The notes beneath the pieces are model-generated. The model made no database searches, was not told the DNA's origin, and worked only from the letters and a program-made list of their open reading frames with translations. DNA of 64,000 nt, from positions 1,728,001 through 1,792,000 of the forward strand of contig OZ244048.1 in NCBI GenBank assembly GCA_965215265.1. Direction: 5' to 3'. A program made the position numbers and the translations under genes. Shown in pieces: positions 6,615 to 49,464 of the stretch. How positions within the stretch are numbered: position 1 is the stretch's first letter; each line of letters opens with the position of its first letter. The stretch comes from Candidatus Poribacteria bacterium. Its GTDB lineage: Bacteria; Poribacteria; WGA-4E; WGA-3G.

Positions 6615-7607
6615 TTACGTATTGTTGTCGTTGTCAGCTGCCTCCAGTTGGCGGATAAGTTCTGCCCGCACCTCTGGAGATAAATGAAGTCCGGCTAGCC
6701 GCTCATCGGGAGTGAGTCCTTTGACACGCTCATCGGGACTCAGACTTGCTAACATATCGGCGCGTTCTTCGGCACTGAGCCCTTTCATCCGTTCGGCAGG
6801 CGGAATTCTCTCTAGAATCTCGGCCCCGAACGTGTCTGCTAACGCTTGCATTTCAGTAGTGAGTCCTTTCATCCGTTCGGCAGGCGGAATTCTCTCTAGA
6901 ATCTCGCTCCCGAACGTGTCTGCTAATGCTTGCATTTCAGTTTCATAAAAGTTCTGTTTCTTTCCCATTTGTAAAATCTCCATTGATGTTCGAGGGTGGA
7001 CCTGCGACGCATATCTAAAATAGCGCTCATTTTCTTCTGCAACTAGCTGCCTCACAAACGCACGGAATCCCGCAGCCGATGCGGTAAAAGGCAGCAACAA
7101 ATAATTCTCTCGCACCAGTTCCAGCTCGTTGCACACTAACAGATGCACTGGAAACACCTCCGTTATCTGGTAGTGTCCCGGCTTGACGTGCTCCCATTGT
7201 CCCTTGTAATAGGGCCGTGAGAGCAGGGCGCGGGGGTAGCGGGCGGAGACAATCGTCAAGGTGAGTGCCTGCTTTGAAAGCCTGTTATCAGCCAGATAAA
7301 GACAAGCGCGCGCCTGGATGCGGTAATAGTCGCTCTCTGTCAAAGCGTCGGCTTGACTTTTGAACTCTATGAGATTATGCATTCGGAAATAGCGGAAAAT
7401 CGGCTCCTCGGCGAGGAGGTTTGCCCGGTCAGCGGCGTTTCGCAAAATCACGCCGATGTCTATCGTGAGGGACAAGTAGCTGACGGCGAGTTCTGCCTGT
7501 ATCGGGATGCCGAGTCTCTCCCCCAGCTGCGCGTTGAGATTCTGTTTGAAGTGTGCGTCATAAGCCGCCCGGACGCTGCGCGGTTTTTCATCGTCTGTTC
7601 TGGGCAT
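6615..7607 (-). CDS. PD-(D/E)XK nuclease-family (Rpn-like) protein, type B
   Basis: QAELAV..L.LTID...NLIEFKSQAD; 84-bp internal duplication (TEMQALADTFG.EILERIPPAERMKGL x2); paralog at 34789-35796. Confidence 0.8.
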   Translation of the reverse strand: MPRTDDEKPRSVRAAYDAHFKQNLNAQLGERLGIPIQAELAVSYLSLTIDIGVILRNAADRANLLAEEPIFRYFRMHNLIEFKSQADALTESDYYRIQARACLYLADNRLSKQALTLTIVSARYPRALLSRPYYKGQWEHVKPGHYQITEVFPVHLLVCNELELVRENYLLLPFTASAAGFRAFVRQLVAEENERYFRYASQVHPRTSMEILQMGKKQNFYETEMQALADTFGSEILERIPPAERMKGLTTEMQALADTFGAEILERIPPAERMKGLSAEERADMLASLSPDERVKGLTPDERLAGLHLSPEVRAELIRQLEAADNDNNT

Positions 7608-27298: not shown

Positions 27299-27374
27299 AC
27301 CGAGAAACGTTAGCATTGTATCGTGGGCTGGTAAACCGGGGTGTCGGCGATTGCGGCGAGAAACACCGTGATTG

Positions 27375-27403
27375 GATGTATCTGGTGCGGTAGTTTGCCT
27401 CAT
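27375..27403 (-). pseudogene. 5' stub of a type A nuclease gene (MRQTTAPDTS) with its own promoter
   Basis: First 10 residues and the upstream ~65 bp match those of 5027-6121; then similarity is lost. Confidence 0.8.
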
Positions 27404-27518
27404 CTATCTGCTTAGGCGCTTCACTTCTGATAATAAAGTATAGCAGCCTCTCTATTATTTTGTCAAGACAACCTTCACGTTTTGCCTCGCAGGGCGGCCT
27501 CGGTGCTTCTCTGAAAGC

Positions 27519-27560
27519 AAAAAAAACCAGGGGCAGCCATATGAGGGTGGCTGCCCCTGG
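27519..27560 (-). terminator. Intrinsic terminator
   Basis: CCAGGGGCAGCCA/TGGCTGCCCCTGG stem plus A8 run. Confidence 0.85.
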
Positions 27561-27602
27561 TTTAGGTTAGTTTAGTTTAGTTTAACTTAGCATTCACAGC
27601 GT

Positions 27603-27683
27603 TTATTCTTCCGATTTGAGCGTTGCCCAGCGTTCTGTGAGTTTTCCGTCTGCACTCAGATACCCTCTCAACCGCGTCTTCTG
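27603..27683 (-). pseudogene. Orphan fragment of a surface-protein 3' end
   Basis: Translates as QKTRLRGYLSADGKLTERWATLKSEE*, directly after the nuclease TAG. Confidence 0.85.
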
Positions 27684-28931
27684 CTACGTGTCGGTGTGGT
27701 TGTCAGCTGCCTCCAGCTGCCGCACGAGTTCCGCGCGCACCTCCGCAGATAAATTCTGAATCTCCGCCGGCGACAAACTCTGAAATGCCTTGACGCGCTC
27801 CTCGGGACTCAGGCGTGCCAACATATCGGCCCGTTCTGCCGCGGGTAGACTCGCTAACATATCGGCCCGGTCTGCCGCAGATAACCTTGCTAACATGTCC
27901 GCACGTTCTGCGGCGGGTAAACTCGCCAACATATCGGCCCGGTCTGCCGCAGATAACCTTGCTAACATGTCCGCACGTTCTGCGGCGGGTAAACTCGCCA
28001 ACATATCGGCCCGGTCTGCCGCAGATAACCTTGCTAACATGTCCGCACGTTCTGCGGCGGGTAAACTCGCCAACATATCGGCCCGGTCTGCCGCAGATAA
28101 CCTTGCTAACATGTCCGCCCGGTCTTCAGCAGGCAGCCGTGCGAGCAGATCCGCCCGGTCTTGAGGACTCAAGCGGGCGAGCATGTCCGCACGCTCCTCC
28201 GATGTCAGCGCCGACAGCAGCTTCGGACCTAAAGTCGTCGCAACTTCGCGAAGACGACTCTGAAAGAAATCTTGACGGCCTTCCATTTCACAAACCTCCT
28301 CCGTGACTTCCGGCTGCAAATACAACGCGGAGTCAAAATATAACGTATTCTCTTCTGTTATCACCCGCCGCAGGAACGCACGAAACTGTTTCTGCGACGA
28401 CGCAAACAGCAGCAACCAATAATTCGGCTCAACCAGTGCCACTTCATTGCAAACCAACAGATGCACCGGCACGCCATCCATCAACCGATAATGCCCCGCC
28501 GCCAACGGCTCCCACGGCTCCCCAAAAGGTGGGCGGGAGAGCAGCGCCCGCGGCTTCCGAGACGATACTATCGTCAGGGTTAACTCGGTTGCAGGCACCT
28601 GCTTATCTGCCAGATAACCACGCGCACGCATACAAATCCGGTGATACGCCGATTCATTCAACGGGTCGTTTTGTCCTTTGAATTCAAACAGATTATGCGT
28701 GCGTAAGTAAGAGAGCAGCGGGTTGGCACGCACTCTCGCGCGGGCTGCGGCGCTTTCGAGGAGAGCGAGTGCATCTATACGCTGCGGCAACCGGTTCACT
28801 TCTATCTCTGTCTGGATAGAGGCACCCAGCCCAGAGAAGGGTAGGGCGAGGAACTCTTTGAAGAAAGGGTCCCAGAGTTTCCGTTTGCTTTGTGTTTCTT
28901 TAGATGTCTCCGGCACTGTCGTTTGCCTCAT
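27684..28931 (-). CDS. PD-(D/E)XK nuclease-family (Rpn-like) protein, type A, with expanded 12/24-aa repeats
   Basis: Same N-domain as 5027-6121; (ADMLARLSAADRADMLASLPAAER)x4. Confidence 0.8.
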   Translation of the reverse strand: MRQTTVPETSKETQSKRKLWDPFFKEFLALPFSGLGASIQTEIEVNRLPQRIDALALLESAAARARVRANPLLSYLRTHNLFEFKGQNDPLNESAYHRICMRARGYLADKQVPATELTLTIVSSRKPRALLSRPPFGEPWEPLAAGHYRLMDGVPVHLLVCNEVALVEPNYWLLLFASSQKQFRAFLRRVITEENTLYFDSALYLQPEVTEEVCEMEGRQDFFQSRLREVATTLGPKLLSALTSEERADMLARLSPQDRADLLARLPAEDRADMLARLSAADRADMLASLPAAERADMLARLSAADRADMLASLPAAERADMLARLSAADRADMLASLPAAERADMLARLSAADRADMLASLPAAERADMLARLSPEERVKAFQSLSPAEIQNLSAEVRAELVRQLEAADNHTDT

Positions 28932-29051
28932 CTATCTGCTTAGACGCTCCACTTCTCATAATAAAGTATAGCAGCCTTTCTGCTTTTTTGTCAAGGCCGT
29001 CTCCAGATTTGGCTTCTCAAGGTGGCCTCGGTGCTTCTCTCTATCCAAAGC

Positions 29052-29091
29052 AAAAAAATAGGGGCAACCACTTGTGAGGGTGGCTGCCCCT
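29052..29091 (-). terminator. Intrinsic terminator of surface protein gene 29126-31828
   Basis: AGGGGCAACCAC/GTGGCTGCCCCT stem plus A-run. Confidence 0.8.
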
Positions 29092-29125
29092 GGTTTGGGT
29101 TAGGTGAGTTTAGCATTCACAGCGT

Positions 29126-31828
29126 TTATTCTTCCGATTTGAGCGTTGCCCAGCGTTCTGTGAGTTTCCCATCTGCACTCAGATGCCCTTTCAAGCGGGT
29201 TGTCTGCAGCGTCTGCTGCACACCTGCGTTGGAGACATCTTCAATGCGGTAGTAATACACCACATTCGGTTTGGCAGACGTATCCGTCCAACTATAGTCG
29301 TTGCGTTCGCCAGTGGTGCCGGCCCCTGCAATCAACTCGGAGTTTATCTTTGTGAAGGTGCCGTTGCGCGCATCGCTCCGCAGCAGGTTGAATCCTGCGT
29401 TGTTCAACTCGGATTCGGTTGCCCAACTGATGACGATAGCGCCTTCTACGCGTTTCGCGGTGAAGGCAGAGAGCGCCACGGGCAGCGGGCCGCCGCCCCG
29501 ATAGCCGGGAGTGCCTTCATCCTCGGCATTGCCGTAGAAGGTGTCGCGCTGCGCCTCGTTCAAAGAGGTGTTGGCGGCTAGCACCCAACCCGCTTCGGTG
29601 GTGCCGTCTTCGGCAACTGCGCCGGTGGCGCGGCTAGCGCTGCCGTAGCGGCGGATGATGGAGCTGCGCCCGTCTTCAAGCATTGGCAGCTCCCACGCAG
29701 GTTCTTCCCCTCGCCCGACATAGTTGCCAACCGTATCCACCACGGGCTTGACACCAGAGGCTTCTTTGCCATATAACGTCAACTTGAAGGCGGTGGTGGC
29801 TAGCACCGGCGAACGCCGTTCCAAGTCCAGTTTATCGCGATAAGCACTCTCACGCCGCAGGTTGATGACACGTGCATCAGGGAAGTGGCCAGAGGTGCGC
29901 CCGGTGTCTGTCACGATGAGCAGCGTCTGGTTCGGGGGGATTATCTTACCGCCTACGAATTTGAGCGTCACATCTGGGCGAACGGCGGTGTCGGTGGTGG
30001 CATCTTGTTGGATGCGGAGCGTCCAGTCGTTCAGATTCACCGCTTCGGTTAGAGAACTATTGTGCAGCTCTATCCACTGCGGCAGCCGGTTGTCTGTGTC
30101 GAACATAATCTCGCTGATGGAGACTTGGCCCGCGGCGGATTTATCTTTCACTACACCGTTCTGATACCCGGGGGTACCGCCATACGCGTCTGCGTTCGGG
30201 GTATCGCGATCCCAGCCTATGCCGGTGAAACCGCGTTTGCTCCACGCGTTTTCCGCGAAGTTGTTCTCATTGTCGCGCTGATACACTGACCCTTCCTTGA
30301 ACGCCTCATCTATATCCTTAAAGATGTCCTTGTCGGGATCCGGTGTCGCCTGCAGTGGCCAAACCTCCGTATTGTAGTTCTGAGAATCATGCGTCCCTAC
30401 AAACGGAACGAAAACAGCACCTGCCGCATCTTCTATGTGAATCGGCTTATTCTCTTTATCTTTCCCATTCCGCAGCAGCAACAAGAACTTACCGTCTGCG
30501 GGAAGGTTGAGGCCGGATACAACTACGTATTGGTGCGTCGCACCATGCTGCACCTCATCCGCATCGTCCACACCCAGATTGTTCCCACCAGCGAGAAAGT
30601 TTCCTTCGGGATTGCTGTTCGCAACGAGTAACACACCCCCGCCGGCAATACTCTTATCAGGCAGCGTCACAAGCACCTTCTCGGTGCGCGCAGACGCATC
30701 GCCTGTCACAAGCGTGAGCTCCCACTCTTTGATACTGACGGCGGCATCCGTGTCGTTTCGCAGCTCTATCCAATCTAGGCTGTCAGACGTGTGATTCCCT
30801 ACTTCGTTGATGACAATCTTTCGACCTTCGAAACTCGTCCGGTCTCCGGCGGCGATACGCTGAGACGGGGTCGAACCAGGGGTGCCGATACGCTGCCCAC
30901 CGAGGTTTATGCTCGGCGCAGAGGACGCTTGCCAGTTATCGGAACGGTTACCGTCTTCGACTTCAGCCTTGGCAAAATCTATGCTCCTATACATCGAAAC
31001 CAGAGACGCAGACGCGGCTTCATCAGTTGCCACGGTGCGCCCACCTCCACCGGGCACCTCCCAGTAGCCCAGCCCTAGATTGCTTATGCTATCTATCACC
31101 AGATACGGAGTCTCTCCTATTGTCACTTCCGCACGATTCACCAGGTCGCCTGTCGTAAAATACAACGCCCAATCGTCCGCTACGGCAGTGGCGGCAACCG
31201 CTTTTACTGCATACAGCTCTAGCCACTGGCCAGACGACGACGGCGTTTGACTCGCATCTTCGCCCCACAACACTTCACTTATGACCACATCACCTTTCGC
31301 GGCACCGCCGGTGGTTAGCTTCGGCGCTATCAATTCTATCGTCCCACCATTACGGAAAAATTCGCTCAAGTTACGAGTCAGGGTTTCTACAGGTGCAACA
31401 GCACTGGAGATACCATGCGTTGTGGATGAGCTTCCCTCTTGGGTCAATACCTCAAAACCGCCCGCTGCCAACGCTGAAAGCGTGAAGTAGTCCAATTTCG
31501 CGTCAGGGCGAAGTATCGTCAAGTCGTCTAACGCTGACAACTCATCGGGGATATCCGATACTTGCGTTCCCCGGAGATCCAGCTCTTCCAAGTTCGTGAG
31601 GCTTGACAACGCAGAGATATCCTCTACTGGCGTATTACTGATATCCAACTTTTTCAAGGTGGTGAGAGTTGCCAGAGACGAGACATCCTCTACTTCCGTT
31701 CCAGAGAGATCCAGCTCTTCCAAGCTCGTGAGGGCTGAATGCGCTGCGAAAGGCAACGCTATTACAAGGCCGGCTAATAATACAACAATGCACAACGGCA
31801 TTTTTTTTCCTAATGCTTTCGAATACAT
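29126..31828 (-). CDS. Secreted surface protein: LRRs + three lamin-tail-like domains + LPV-type C-terminal domain with GKLTERWATLK tail
   Basis: Signal peptide; VVISEV..QWLELY, IVINEV..DWIELRN, VSISEIM..QWIELHN; GTPG motifs; GGAGG RBS. Confidence 0.85.
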   Translation of the reverse strand: MYSKALGKKMPLCIVVLLAGLVIALPFAAHSALTSLEELDLSGTEVEDVSSLATLTTLKKLDISNTPVEDISALSSLTNLEELDLRGTQVSDIPDELSALDDLTILRPDAKLDYFTLSALAAGGFEVLTQEGSSSTTHGISSAVAPVETLTRNLSEFFRNGGTIELIAPKLTTGGAAKGDVVISEVLWGEDASQTPSSSGQWLELYAVKAVAATAVADDWALYFTTGDLVNRAEVTIGETPYLVIDSISNLGLGYWEVPGGGGRTVATDEAASASLVSMYRSIDFAKAEVEDGNRSDNWQASSAPSINLGGQRIGTPGSTPSQRIAAGDRTSFEGRKIVINEVGNHTSDSLDWIELRNDTDAAVSIKEWELTLVTGDASARTEKVLVTLPDKSIAGGGVLLVANSNPEGNFLAGGNNLGVDDADEVQHGATHQYVVVSGLNLPADGKFLLLLRNGKDKENKPIHIEDAAGAVFVPFVGTHDSQNYNTEVWPLQATPDPDKDIFKDIDEAFKEGSVYQRDNENNFAENAWSKRGFTGIGWDRDTPNADAYGGTPGYQNGVVKDKSAAGQVSISEIMFDTDNRLPQWIELHNSSLTEAVNLNDWTLRIQQDATTDTAVRPDVTLKFVGGKIIPPNQTLLIVTDTGRTSGHFPDARVINLRRESAYRDKLDLERRSPVLATTAFKLTLYGKEASGVKPVVDTVGNYVGRGEEPAWELPMLEDGRSSIIRRYGSASRATGAVAEDGTTEAGWVLAANTSLNEAQRDTFYGNAEDEGTPGYRGGGPLPVALSAFTAKRVEGAIVISWATESELNNAGFNLLRSDARNGTFTKINSELIAGAGTTGERNDYSWTDTSAKPNVVYYYRIEDVSNAGVQQTLQTTRLKGHLSADGKLTERWATLKSEE

Positions 31829-33537: not shown

Positions 33538-33630
33538 TTTATTTAATTCCTCATTTATTTTTTTTGCACTCATTATGCAAAATTTATAACCTTCTGGCTA
33601 AGTTATCGAACCAAAAAACACTTTAACTAT

Positions 33631-33815
33631 ATTATAACACAAACCACGAAAAACGTCAACTTTTTTTCCTGGTTTATCGCACATTTATACAAGCTATCGA
33701 TATAAACTAAAAGACGTTGTAAATATAGGAATGTCTCATTAATTAATTGAATCACAAAATCACTACTATATTACAATACAAATATATTATAACACAAAAA
33801 TCCGGAATATGTCAA
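33631..33815 (-). promoter_or_regulatory. Two tandem extended -10 sigma70 promoters
   Basis: TTGACG-17-TATAAT (33659-33631) and TTGACA-18-TATAAT (33815-33786). Confidence 0.7.
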
Positions 33816-34078
33816 CTTTTTTTATTGAATCCACGTCCGCTGCCCTCTTCTCAGGGAGACACGGCTTGCTGTGCCATCTGACTAATTAGTGACTTTTCAC
33901 CCACCGACTTGAGTCCGGTGGTAAAAAGGGCCAATTGGACTTAATGAGATAACGATGAAAGCGAATTGTAAGTTACGCGCTGAGACACTTTTTTGTTGAT
34001 ATTCAATCCAGAATCTCGCTGCCGATTGATGTCCGAGGGTGGACCTGCGAGCGGGTATCAAGGGACGGCGGCTCTCCG

Positions 34079-34366
34079 TTAGGTGTCGGTGTGGTTGTCA
34101 GCTGCCACCAGCTGTCGGACAAGCTCTGCCCGCACCTCCGCAGATAAATTCTGAATCTCCGCCGGGCGAAGTCCGGCTAACCGCTCATCGGGGCTGAGTC
34201 CTTTGACACGCTCATCGGGGCTCAGCCGTGCTAACATGTCGGCACGCTCTTCGGGAGTGAGTCCTTTCATCCGTTCGGCAGGCGGAATTCTCGCCAGAAT
34301 CTCGGTGCCGAACGTGTCTGCCAATGCTTGCATTTCGGTGTCGTAAAAGTTCTGTCTTTTTCCCAT
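34079..34366 (-). CDS. Stand-alone 95-aa tail protein (candidate antitoxin cassette)
   Basis: GGAG-9 nt-ATG; MGKRQNFYDTEMQ...ADNHTDT*. Confidence 0.6.
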   Translation of the reverse strand: MGKRQNFYDTEMQALADTFGTEILARIPPAERMKGLTPEERADMLARLSPDERVKGLSPDERLAGLRPAEIQNLSAEVRAELVRQLVAADNHTDT

Positions 34367-34433
34367 TTGTAATATCTCCAATGATGTACGAGGGTGGACC
34401 TGCGAGCGGGTATCAAGGAATAGGGACTCTCCG

Positions 34434-34721
34434 TTAGGTGTCGGTGTGGTTGTCAGCTGCCACCAGCTGTCGGACAAGCTCTGCCCGCACCTCCGCAGAT
34501 AAATTCTGAATCTCCGCCGGGCGAAGTCCGGCTAACCGCTCATCGGGGCTGAGTCCTTTGACACGCTCATCGGGGCTCAGCCGTGCTAACATGTCGGCAC
34601 GCTCTTCGGGAGTGAGTCCTTTCATCCGTTCGGCAGGCGGAATTCTCGCCAGAATCTCGGTGCCGAACGTGTCTGCTAATGCTTGCATTTCGGTGTCGTA
34701 AAAGTTCTGTCTTTTTCCCAT
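34434..34721 (-). CDS. Stand-alone 95-aa tail protein (candidate antitoxin cassette)
   Basis: Same protein sequence as 34079-34366. Confidence 0.6.
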   Translation of the reverse strand: MGKRQNFYDTEMQALADTFGTEILARIPPAERMKGLTPEERADMLARLSPDERVKGLSPDERLAGLRPAEIQNLSAEVRAELVRQLVAADNHTDT

Positions 34722-34788
34722 TTGTAATATCTCCAATGATGTACGAGGGTGGACCTGCGAGCGGGTATCAAGGAATAGGGACTCTCCG

Positions 34789-35796
34789 TTAGGTGTCGGT
34801 GTCGTTGTCAGCTGCCACCAGCTGTCGGACAAGCTCTGCCCGCACCTCCGCAGATAAATTCTGAATCTCCGCCGGCGACAAACCTTGAAATGCCTTGACG
34901 CGTTCATCGGGGCTAAGTCCTTTGACGCGTTCATCGGCACTCAGGCGTGCTAACATATCCGCCCGGTCCTGAGGGCTCAAGCGGGCCAGCATGTCCGTGC
35001 GGGCTTCAGCGGGCAGCCGTGCTAACATGTCGGCACGCTCTTCGGGAGTGAGTCCTTTCATCCGTTCGGCAGGCGGAATTCTCGCCAGAATCTCGGTGCC
35101 GAACGTGTCTGCCAATGCTTGCATTTCGGTGTCGTAAAAGTTCTGTCTTTTTCCCATTTGTAATATCTCCATTGATGTTTGAGGGTGGACCTGCGAGGCA
35201 TATCTAAAATAGCGCTCATTTTCTTCTGCAACTAGCTGCCTCACAAACGCACGGAATTGTTCCGCTGATGCCGTAAAAGGCAGCAACAAATAATTCTCTC
35301 GCACCAGTTCCAGCTCGTTGCACACTAACAGATGCACTGGAAACGTCTCCGTTATCTGGTAGTGTCCCGGCTTGACGCGTTCCCATTGTCCCTTGTAATA
35401 AGGCCGCGAGAGCAGTGCGCGAGGGTAGCGGGCGGAGACAATCGTCAAGGTGAGTACCTGCTTTGAAAGCCTGTTATCAGCCAGATAAAGACACGCACGC
35501 GCCTGGATGCGGTAATAGTCGCTCTCTGTCAAAGCGTCGGCTTGACTTTTGAACTCTATGAGATTATGCGTTCGGAAGTAGCGGAAAATCGGCTCTTCGG
35601 CGAGGAGGTTTGCCCGGTCAGCGGTGTCTCGCAAAATCACGCAGATGTCTATCGTGAGAGGCAGGTAGCTGACGGCGAGTTCTGCCTGTATCGGCAGCCC
35701 GAGTCGCTCTCCGAGCTGCGCGTTGAGATTCTGTTTGAAGCACGCATCATAAGCCGCCCGGACACCGCGCGGTTTTTCATCGCCTGCTCTGCGCAT
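34789..35796 (-). CDS. PD-(D/E)XK nuclease-family (Rpn-like) protein, type B
   Basis: N-domain nearly identical to 6615-7607; different tail. Confidence 0.8.
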   Translation of the reverse strand: MRRAGDEKPRGVRAAYDACFKQNLNAQLGERLGLPIQAELAVSYLPLTIDICVILRDTADRANLLAEEPIFRYFRTHNLIEFKSQADALTESDYYRIQARACLYLADNRLSKQVLTLTIVSARYPRALLSRPYYKGQWERVKPGHYQITETFPVHLLVCNELELVRENYLLLPFTASAEQFRAFVRQLVAEENERYFRYASQVHPQTSMEILQMGKRQNFYDTEMQALADTFGTEILARIPPAERMKGLTPEERADMLARLPAEARTDMLARLSPQDRADMLARLSADERVKGLSPDERVKAFQGLSPAEIQNLSAEVRAELVRQLVAADNDTDT

Positions 35797-35839
35797 AACT
35801 CCTCCATCCTGACTCTCTTTACTTTACTTCTTCTTATGT

Positions 35840-36109
35840 ATTGTAAAAGGGTGAGAAAAAATGTCAACCCATTTTACGTGATGTTGCCTCAAACCGGTTC
35901 GGCAACTCACTTTTAATTAAGTATACCTGCAATGTAAAAAAAATGTCAACTTTTTTCTCTTATATTATGATACCCGCAATCTGAGAAAATTTCAACTCTT
36001 TTTTTTCGAATTCCTGAATCGGTTTCCGTTCCGAAATAAACACTACAGAATTGCACGAATTTTCGAGAGTTAACAATAATATTATATCTCAAGCCCCAAA
36101 GTTTGTCAA
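35840..36109 (-). promoter_or_regulatory. Stack of four sigma70-like promoters
   Basis: TTGACA-16-TACAAT, TTGACA-18-TATACT, TTGAAA-17-TATCAT, TTGACA-17-TATAAT. Confidence 0.6.
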
Positions 36110-36450
36110 CTCTATTTTCGGTTTTTTTCGGAATCCGGACGCGCTGCCCCGCAAAAACTTGTAAAATATGTGGAATCGGTGTGTTCACAGAAGCATCGGT
36201 CTCCGTATTTAAACCGCAGCGGGTGAGCCGCAGGTGCACCTGCCGTGCTACTCCTCCGTTCCATTCTCCGCAGCCAGCAACTGCCGCGCCAGTTTCACAC
36301 GCATCTCCATCGACAAGCCCCGGAGCACCTCCACCAATTCGGCGTGAGACATCGCTTTGAAAAATAGACTTGATATTTTAAATTTAACTTGATATAATAA
36401 TCTAATCTAAACTGAGGTATAATACGAAAACTGCAACCAGAGGTTGTCAC

Positions 36451-36866
36451 ATGAAAAAATATAATCTCTTTATTAGTCATTCGTGGGCCTACGACAATCA
36501 ATATCAAAATCTAATCAATTTGCTTGATGCAAGGCCATATTTCCACTATAGCAACTATTCCGTACCCAAAGACGATCCGCTACATACCAGCGGAACGGAC
36601 CGAGCATTGTATAATGCGATAAAAAATCAGATAACGCCTAGCAGTATTGTGCTGATATTGGCAGGCATTTACGCAAGCTATAGCAAATGGATCGACAAAG
36701 AAATCCAGATTGCACAAACTGAGTACTGGACTCCCAAACCGATTCTTGCTATTGAACCTTGGGGGAGTCAAAATACATCTGCCAAGGTAAAGGAAAGGAT
36801 GCCGCGGATAAAATCGTTGGCTGGAATACGGACAGCATTGTCTCTGCAATTCGGGAGTTAGCGTGA
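36451..36866 (+). pseudogene. MTH538/ThsB-like TIR domain protein, frameshifted near the C-terminus
   Basis: LFISHSW, SKWIDKEI (catalytic Glu), KPILAI; AAGGA duplication at 36790-36799 displaces ADKIVGWNTDSIVSAIRELA*. Confidence 0.8.
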
Positions 36867-37330
36867 ACATGGACGGAAAACAGGAATTGCTAGAAATCTA
36901 CAAACTCCACGCGGAACTCGCCAACAGTGTCAGCAAGCAACGGGTTACCGCAAACCGTTTCTATATGCTGGTCTTGTCTGGATTGTCGGTGCTTTTCTCC
37001 GCGTTCCTACAACGCAGAAATGGAGTACCCCTATCGTGGCTCATGATAGGCTTTGGGTTACTCGGTACACTTTTGGCAGCAGCATGGTATATTATCATCC
37101 GCTCCTATCGTCAACTGAATTCTGGGAAATTCAAGGCATTGCATGAATTGGAGGAAAAACTCGCCTATCCGTTTTTCAAACGCGAATGGGAATTGCTGCA
37201 GGAAGGCACAGAACGAAAAACCTATTGGCGACTCACCATTGTTGAGACGTTTGTTCCGGTGATCTTCTTTGTCTGTTTTGCAGTGTTGTTGATAATTGGC
37301 ATTTGTTTACTCTTTATTGACGGAGCCTGA
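36863..37330 (+). CDS. Small 3-TM membrane protein (RipA/8xMP-like candidate effector)
   Basis: LEIYKL..E.A..VS.QR..ANRFY, W..IIRSYRQLNSGKF..HELE..L...F..EW; GTGA overlap with the restored TIR stop. Confidence 0.7.
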   Translation: MNMDGKQELLEIYKLHAELANSVSKQRVTANRFYMLVLSGLSVLFSAFLQRRNGVPLSWLMIGFGLLGTLLAAAWYIIIRSYRQLNSGKFKALHELEEKLAYPFFKREWELLQEGTERKTYWRLTIVETFVPVIFFVCFAVLLIIGICLLFIDGA

Positions 37331-49077: not shown

Positions 49078-49217
49078 TGGGATTCCCCTGCTCGCTTATG
49101 GGCGGGATTTGTAAACCCGCTGCGCATGATGATAGCTAATTATTATCGGATATAGCAACAAGAAAAGCCACAGAATTTTTAGCAATTGCTGTGACTTTGA
49201 TGCGTCTGGAAAAAAAA

Positions 49218-49292
49218 CGGGCCCGACGGGACTTGAACCCGCGACCTCCTGCGTGACAGGCAGGCGCGCTAAACCAACTGCGCCACGAGCCC
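49218..49292 (-). tRNA. tRNA-Asp(GTC)
   Basis: GGGCTCG/CGGGCCC acceptor stem, CTGTCAC anticodon loop, GGTTCAAGTCC T arm. Confidence 0.95.
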
Positions 49293-49389
49293 CGAAGAAA
49301 TATTTAGGCAACGGATAGGTGAACTGCACATCTGCTTGTGAGAACCGCCGTATCTGATAATTGGAACCGATGTAGTGCTTTGTCAAAAA

Positions 49390-49464
49390 CGGGCCCGACG
49401 GGACTTGAACCCGCGACCTCCTGCGTGACAGGCAGGCGCGCTAAACCAACTGCGCCACGAGCCC
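49390..49464 (-). tRNA. tRNA-Asp(GTC), identical second copy
   Basis: Identical to 49218-49292. Confidence 0.95.

Follow-up and report, generated by a model that had tools for sequence, protein, structure and literature searches.

A 64,000-nt window from a bacterium related to the sponge-associated Poribacteria (the window being the whole stretch of DNA analysed, 1728001–1792000 of a single-contig genome of 4,833,177 bp) carries, on the minus strand at 34008–35796, a nuclease-like gene followed by two 355-bp units that encode stand-alone versions of its C-terminal tail and by a truncated third unit. The arrangement is best explained as a gene-within-gene module like that of Rpn, from a family without annotation, in which tandem stand-alone tail genes are born and die. 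The free tails may act as antidotes to the predicted toxic nuclease, a reading that draws on architecture, conservation and precedent and to which we give a probability of roughly 55%. Spare tail genes have already been published for Rpn; what is found here is an unannotated Rpn-like family that has them in tandem copies.

The nuclease-like gene is an open reading frame (ORF) of 335 codons (34789–35796, minus strand), and Tandem Repeats Finder reports the array at 34027–34875 with a period of 355, 2.4 copies, 98% matches, and a score of 1642. In each complete unit, which starts 37 nt ahead of an ATG, GGAG and a 9-nt spacer lead up to that ATG, just as they do inside the gene before Met214, and both stand-alone ORFs encode an identical 95-aa protein. 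Between the two units there are 6 differences in 357 positions, one of them synonymous and the other five lying within 8 nt of the 3′ spacer, of which the array has two types; the copies are thus distinguishable. The duplication junction lies 32 nt past the stop codon, where the pre-ATG segment of the gene begins again, and the 3′ flank before the junction resembles that of cassette-free paralogs. In the third unit the junction is as in the others, the stretch with the Shine-Dalgarno (SD) word and ATG is deleted, and homology stops at 34008. An earlier note on this DNA had described the gene, the two 355-bp units, and the 95-aa ORFs, all of which are present where it placed them, and its proposals that the units start just before the GGAG-9nt-ATG signal and that the third unit is degenerate, with its ATG region deleted, are borne out by the sequence.

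The in-gene tail and the cassettes have an identical 135-nt head and a near-identical end. The cassettes are not plain copies of the adjacent gene, as the earlier note had recognized: they read HPRTS, ERLAGLRP, and ADNHTDT where the gene reads HPQTS, ERVKAFQGLSP, and ADNDTDT, and they have one ADMLARL repeat, whereas the gene has three. None of the short contigs from four public runs (four studies) covers the whole array, and their depth is uninterpretable; one 151-nt contig from an independent study bridges a spacer-to-cassette junction (34276–34426). There is no RNA run among the 22 public sequencing runs found.

In terms of translation, Met214, the first residue of the tail, is invariant in 24 of 24 aligned sequences and is located where model confidence falls between the N-terminal domain (N-domain) and the tail. 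GGAG or GGAGG is present 8–9 nt before this methionine in all 31 copies of the genome (26 genes and five stand-alone pieces) and is kept across four subfamilies with 45–60% N-domain identity, though the residues that it encodes vary (M/L/E-E-I/V). At orthologous loci in other genomes, the word is AAGGAG in 15 of 16, the sixteenth having AAAGAGG, and three divergent loci have GGAG or AGGAG 6–7 nt upstream of the methionine. In a codon alignment of the 16 orthologs, codon variation is absent in just 8 of 110 conserved degenerate columns, two of which are Glu −4 (GAG in 16 of 16) and Leu −2 (TTA in 16 of 16); at Lys −5, 15 of the 16 have AAG. Over the rest of the alignment, the ratio of AAA to AAG for Lys is 80:44 and that of GAG to GAA for Glu is 84:87. 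An SD-like word is also found in 25 of 25 further loci with a recognized motif, including those of Chloroflexota and of a Defluviitaleaceae metagenome-assembled genome (MAG); the motif was recognized by pattern in 25 of 36 loci, and these overlap in many records with the 16-ortholog set. Together, the invariant Met214, the conserved GGAG or AAGGAG word 6–9 nt upstream, and the suppressed synonymous variation predict an internal translation start at this position.

The N-domain (residues 1–213) has no Pfam match even at an E-value of 10 and none in NCBIfam, and with PADLOC the gene and the cassette, like a canonical Rpn gene, have no match. For PF04754 there is no match at E ≤ 0.1 with the gene or at E ≤ 10 with the N-domain alone, TIGR01784 does not match, and hhalign gives a probability of 0.2% for 17 N-domains against four canonical Rpn proteins of the same genome. 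A sequence search of the PDB returns nothing below E = 0.05, and Foldseek against the PDB returns nothing at E ≤ 1e-3, its top rows being at chance level except for MgtE domains matched to the tail. A metagenome scan with the full-length protein gives 79 pattern matches, 0 of them confirmed, and the closest ESM Atlas clusters consist of hypothetical proteins without a name, with PF04754 and DUF4351 clusters appearing only at scores of 0.90–0.91, which is a lead only.

The fold of the N-domain was addressed with an AlphaFold2 model (24-sequence alignment), in which its pLDDT is mostly above 90, and with a structural search of this model against 48,161 representative PDB chains. The best match to residues 5–175 is NucS (2vld; Z = 8.6, rmsd 3.3, 101 aligned residues), followed by McrC (6hz4_M; Z = 8.5), AF1548 (Z = 7.6), and VC1899 (Z = 7.5). 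Further matches to restriction and CRISPR-ancillary nucleases include Can2, Card1, FokI, BglII, and BamHI. All 24 aligned sequences have D50, E81, and K83, which fall in the ...ID... and ...EFK... strands where they would be expected. The modeled N-domain resembles a PD-(D/E)xK nuclease, and we refer to it as a predicted nuclease fold.

The tail is built of 12-residue (36-bp) units, for example ERADMLARLSPQ, and among the 26 full-length copies its length ranges from 69 to 238 aa in 12-aa units. It matches the Pfam family MgtE_N (PF03448) with an E-value of 2.1e-7 and 31.8 bits against a cut-off of 25.9 (residues 246–318), and MgtE cytoplasmic domains match the tail model (residues 234–332) with Z scores of 6.0–6.8. 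Neither the gene nor the cassette matches DUF4351 (PF14261). The 95-aa cassette alone has no Pfam match above cut-off and folds with low confidence (pLDDT 64.8), into short helices throughout. In relatives, the tail repeat units are of 4, 9, or 10 aa. Orthologs from the sister strains HSG25 and HSG24 (Anaerolineales; L064 and L065) differ by one 10-residue LLAEREKQQA unit; these two proteins have a DUF4351-like end and are of 440 and 430 aa, in open frame.

Stand-alone tails downstream of family genes have at least five independent origins in the sequences compared, and of the five events, four keep the SD word, the ATG, and an open frame, and one has decayed. In this genome, a single junction accounts for four intact type B cassettes at three loci, namely the two cassettes of the window and one each (125 and 170 aa) in a 2.1-kb tandem pair at genome positions 4.1009–4.1053 Mb. 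Each type B array ends in a decayed unit, followed by a common flank that is ~91% identical; the remnant at the sister locus (genome 4.10 Mb) is longer than that of the window and keeps its ATG, with a premature TAG at codon 5. A separate event in this genome is a 433–460-bp duplication of a type C gene with another junction, starting 55 codons before the methionine. In genome G068 the copy begins exactly at the SD word, its ATG has become ATA, and it contains a stop codon; at locus L070 an intact SD-ATG-tail frame stands behind a scrap of N-domain; and in the Defluviitaleaceae MAG (L072) an intact copy starts 30 codons before the methionine, differs by one four-residue unit from the in-gene tail, and is followed by a G+C-rich hairpin. 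All five duplicates start 14–165 nt upstream of the internal ATG with the SD word included, none has D50, E81, or K83, and none starts inside the tail. Four more stand-alone tail proteins, of 92–146 aa, are called in other assemblies.

In G068, a sister genome, a 63-nt direct repeat (1378–1440 and 2598–2660; 98%) with the sequence of the argJ 3′ end stands on either side of the gene and the dead tail copy (locus L014), which fits tandem duplication plus deletion better than transposition. A more decayed piece of argJ is also repeated there (1072–1141 and 2525–2594), and in other relatives the family gene lies upstream of argJ. Within the window, no inverted repeat of at least 60 nt flanks any copy, shorter repeats not having been searched. 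Four orphan fragments of the type A tail head, of 22–30 aa, are located outside family genes (C1:1720183–1720272, 4202098–4202187, 4366097–4366162, and 437379–437468).

The genome holds 26 full-length paralogs of the gene: 17 of type A, five of type B, one of type B′, and three of type C. The N-domain is present in 28 of 176 genomes of the phylum, usually once or twice per genome, and three or four genomes show expansions. A profile built from 17 N-domains retrieves 1488 cluster representatives at E ≤ 1e-3 from a library of 1.84 billion proteins. Named relatives comprise Candidatus Poribacteria MAGs together with a few Chloroflexota, a Defluviitaleaceae MAG, and others. Of the best 150 relatives 67 were scanned; 65 have no Pfam family and two end in DUF4351 (E ≤ 1e-3), with weaker DUF4351 matches in four more of seven relatives that were rescanned. 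One relative (P0106) has four-residue QQGM repeats. Among the titles and abstracts found on Poribacteria together with Rpn, on DUF4351, and on intragenic antitoxins since 2023, none describes the family; the supplements of one Rpn study (PMC10400941) may list related stand-alone tails.

The PF04754 profile finds 24 canonical Rpn genes elsewhere in this genome, and the three families together come to about 59 Rpn-like genes in the 4.8-Mb genome. The tails of the canonical genes (e.g., C1:1264782–1265867, 3218089–3221736, and 4143870–4146451; several in tandem) consist of GIEQ, GIER, or GREE four-residue repeats, and their lengths step by 4 aa from 81 to 113. The third Rpn-like family, of about nine copies (e.g., C1:958444–959484, 4279772–4280779, and 149699–150679), has the N-terminus MAQDYDNMAKELL and GIEQ-type repeat tails. 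Two orphan DUF4351-like tail fragments are found at 355457–356071 and 283987–284328.

Comparison of the paralogs reveals that tail ends are exchanged between them at the sequence level. The last 90 nt of the type B gene of the window are 90% identical to those of the type A gene at 27684–28931, with 60% identity in N-domain DNA, whereas the other type B gene is 73% identical over the last 90 nt and 93% identical in the N-domain. At genome position 4.1043 Mb, the 170-aa cassette shares 93% identity with the 167-aa tail encoded 2 kb upstream. No full-length paralog has a tail that matches the 95-aa cassette, the best being its own neighbor with 75% identity over 122 columns. Since the cassettes and the in-gene tails would be subject to gene conversion, dN/dS on the cassettes is uninformative.

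Around the type A gene at 27684–28931, ~300 nt of upstream sequence, including the first codons, is repeated just downstream with 79–87% identity (window 27372–27689 and 28900–29212). Other places in the genome also have short pieces of type A N-termini (e.g., C1:1565163–1565321).

In the region 33600–36400 there are 10 promoter-like sites against 2.5 expected from shuffles, all of them consensus matches only. No promoter-like or terminator-like site is found in the scanned interval between gene and cassettes, and four promoter-like sites lie upstream of the gene; the simplest reading of both is that the cassettes are co-transcribed with it. A promoter-like site with 12 of 12 consensus positions (33815–33786) ends the downstream flank and faces the next gene. 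Promoter-like elements close to consensus, in which a run of A precedes the −35 hexamer, recur around family loci (window 33786–33815 and 35840–36109; L001 119–163, 2309–2353, and 4158–4202), and the genome has 18 occurrences of AAAAGTTGACA, where about 3 would be expected.

The architecture is reminiscent of the Rpn proteins of E. coli, which are reported to be toxic PD-(D/E)xK endonucleases whose tail, RpnS, is made from an internal start and blocks the full-length RpnL (Zhong et al. 2023, PMC10400941). The four-residue repeats of Rpn tails vary between strains and set specificity, and separate rpnSs genes of independent origins (ypaA after rpnE and rpnCSs after rpnC) are expressed, and either deletion or fusion with the N-terminal domain can remove them (PMC10400941). 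According to the same study, stand-alone RpnS proteins are annotated as DUF4351. Koonin's commentary stresses these second RpnS copies and asks whether intragenic antitoxins are unique to Rpn or the tip of the iceberg (PMC10400984).

The family described here has in common with Rpn a PD-(D/E)xK-type N-domain (here predicted) joined to a C-terminal tail that varies, a start signal where domain and tail meet (likewise predicted here), a hypervariable number of tail repeats, many paralogs per genome, and extra stand-alone tail genes of several independent origins directly downstream; distant relatives of this N-domain even carry the Rpn-type DUF4351 tail. It differs in that its N-domain lacks sequence similarity to PF04754 or TIGR01784, its catalytic signature is D...E-x-K, and its tail is MgtE_N-like and multi-helical with 12-residue units, whereas that of Rpn is a three-helix DUF4351 bundle with four-residue units. 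Here, moreover, two stand-alone copies stand in tandem with a remnant, the cassette repeat numbers are unlike that of the neighboring gene, and toxicity and inhibition are predictions. The likeness to Rpn/YhgA that the earlier note had drawn therefore stands for the architecture (predicted fold, Met and SD word, variable tail, and stand-alone tails) and fails for family membership.

Other known systems fit less closely. Stand-alone DUF4351 genes are likewise small and match the tail of an adjacent nuclease-type gene; the tail of the present gene, however, matches MgtE_N and not DUF4351. The MgtE N-terminal or FliG-type repeats (PF03448) resemble the tail in sequence and predicted fold, but the present tail has a varying number of repeats and is part of a nuclease-like protein that lacks CBS and membrane domains. 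In CdiA-CT and Rhs-CT arrays, as here, 3′ gene pieces lie behind a full-length gene with a homology stretch that permits replacement of the tip by recombination. There, however, the orphan piece is a toxin tip with its own immunity gene and usually without a start signal, whereas at this locus the predicted toxic domain forms the N-terminus and is missing from the cassettes, no immunity gene is present, and no further ORF pairs with the cassettes. Because each cassette has its own SD word and ATG, the suggestion of silent donor modules of the CdiA-CT/Rhs type does not hold.

These observations can be rationalized as follows. The 355-bp units would be partial tandem duplicates that keep the internal SD word, the ATG, and the complete 95-codon tail frame, and, with all three kept, they would be translated as free tail proteins. 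Use of the internal ATG would likewise yield a tail protein from within every family gene. The full-length protein is expected to cut DNA and to be toxic or defensive. Cassettes co-transcribed with the gene and translated would supply additional free tails, which are likely to bind the tail of the full-length protein and inhibit it, by analogy with RpnS and RpnSs, which restrain RpnL in E. coli. A cassette would most likely originate when unequal recombination or slippage occurs close to the boundary between the domains, and would then spread together with its locus; its repeat number would change by slippage of the 36-bp repeats; and it would die by deletion, by point mutation, or by fusion to an upstream N-domain, the last producing a tail swap.

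Several points weigh against the antidote reading. By sequence, the gene is not a member of the YhgA/Rpn family, given the lack of a PF04754 or TIGR01784 match and the hhalign result; the structural matches to PD-(D/E)xK proteins span Z scores of 5.4–8.6, which are middling and can reflect a common arrangement; and translation, toxicity, and binding are predictions made from sequence and by analogy. At all three type B loci with cassettes, the repeat number of the cassette is unlike that of the neighboring tail (95 vs 122, 125 vs 167, and 170 vs 77 aa), and in Rpn a mismatch of one repeat is reported to abolish inhibition (PMC10400941). No cassette stands behind any of the 17 type A genes, gene conversion among tails could hold the cassette frames open without selection on the cassettes, and the decayed copies (the third unit of the window, its sister with the stop at codon 5, and the copy in G068) imply that some copies are not maintained. 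The defence-island context is weak as well: among flanking ORFs of relatives, one of 46 scanned (of 63 candidates) matched a defence family, AbiTii, so there is no clear enrichment around them.

The main rival explanation is that the cassettes are functionless by-products of the recombinogenic 36-bp-repeat tails common to the 26 paralogs, being partial duplicates that have not decayed because they are of recent date or because gene conversion overwrites them so often. The near-identity of cassettes 1 and 2, the decayed unit at the end of every type B array, the dead copy in G068, the exchange of tail ends between subfamilies, the mismatched repeat numbers, and the lack of a promoter-like site of the cassettes' own are all consistent with this explanation, and we take it seriously while judging it unlikely. 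Against it stand the observations that five independent duplicates all begin within a short stretch before the internal ATG, keep the SD word, and lack the catalytic core, that the four type B cassettes keep SD word, ATG, and frame although the common non-coding flank of their three loci has diverged by ~9%, and that intact stand-alone tails are called in other assemblies too; the equivalent ypaA product, moreover, is reported to be made in E. coli (PMC10400941). A different function is conceivable if the stand-alone tails are cross-acting keys in a network of 26 paralogous nucleases and not the spare antidote of the neighbor. A free tail might then pair only with a matching repeat architecture, so that a mismatched cassette would silence a sibling paralog, as may be the case for the 170-aa cassette, which resembles the 167-aa tail 2 kb upstream and not the 77-aa tail of its neighbor. 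If this rather improbable proposal were true, gain, loss, slippage, and fusion of cassettes would rewire which nucleases are armed, giving a symbiont genome with about 59 Rpn-like genes a combinatorial, heritable switchboard for defence or self-restraint.

The cassettes might instead serve mainly as a recombination reservoir, in which a deletion fuses the N-domain to another tail and switches its specificity. The head and end common to in-gene tail and cassettes mean that a single crossover would swap the 122-aa tail for the 95-aa one, tails are mosaic between paralogs, and loss of rpnSs by fusion with the N-terminal domain is reported for Rpn (PMC10400941). However, the 26 full-length paralogs already supply many donor tails, and silent donors need neither SD word nor ATG, yet four of the five independent copies keep both; this account of the array, too, is rather improbable. 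It is extremely improbable that the array is an assembly artefact, that is, a mis-expanded repeat in a single-contig assembly. None of the contigs compared spans it, but the units differ at six positions and have 3′ spacers of two types, and the layout of gene, cassette, and remnant recurs at two further loci (genome 4.10 Mb) with the same junction. In addition, a spacer-to-cassette junction is bridged by a contig from a separate study, and stand-alone tails are called in other assemblies.

Table 1. Coordinates of the nuclease-like gene, its cassettes, and related features in the window
Feature	Positions	Strand	Remarks
N-terminal domain, residues 1–213	35158..35796	-	predicted PD-(D/E)xK fold; D50, E81, K83 invariant
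Predicted internal start	35155..35170	-	GGAG 35170–35167, 9-nt spacer, Met214 ATG 35157–35155
In-gene tail, 122 aa	34789..35157	-	MgtE_N-type helical repeat; three ADMLARL 12-aa repeats
Spacer 1	34722..34788	-	32-nt 3′ flank, junction, 37-nt pre-ATG segment; GGAG 34734–34731 in leader of next unit
Cassette 1, 95 aa	34434..34721	-	stand-alone tail with own SD and ATG
Spacer 2	34367..34433	-	junction as in spacer 1
Cassette 2, 95 aa	34079..34366	-	protein identical to cassette 1; one synonymous difference
Decayed third unit	34008..34078	-	junction as in the others; SD/ATG stretch deleted; homology stops at 34008
Downstream flank	33780..34007	-	~91% identical to that of the two sister loci at genome 4.10 Mb
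Four sigma-70-like promoter matches 5′ of gene	36109–36081, 35995–35967, 35949–35920, 35867–35840	-	consensus matches only
Type B paralog without cassettes ("empty" 3′ flank state)	6615..7607	-	
Type A paralog, 364 aa	5027..6121	-	
Type A paralog, 415 aa, 200-aa tail	27684..28931	-	

Directly upstream of the nuclease-like gene, on the opposite strand, sits a ThsB-like TIR gene (136 aa; PF08937, E = 2.3e-16), which is abutted by a gene for an 8xMP octameric membrane protein (155 aa; PF24838, E = 6.2e-35). The pair (window 36451–37330, plus strand) may be a two-gene defence module. Elsewhere in the window, two 100% identical 80-nt copies (49213–49292 and 49385–49464), 172 nt apart, look like tandem tRNA genes.

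Taken as an Rpn-like gene-within-gene module, the locus represents a second nuclease-like family, without a Pfam, NCBIfam, or PADLOC profile, that follows the same logic of a conserved, predicted internal start, repeat-tuned tails, and recurrent stand-alone tails, though its tail fold and repeat period are not those of Rpn. If the antidote reading were confirmed, the gene-within-gene principle would have evolved or spread beyond PF04754, and the tails of 69–238 aa would provide a natural series in which the effect of repeat number on the choice of partner could be tested. Confirmation would also account for some of the striking expansion of Rpn-like genes, about 59 in number, in this 4.8-Mb genome.

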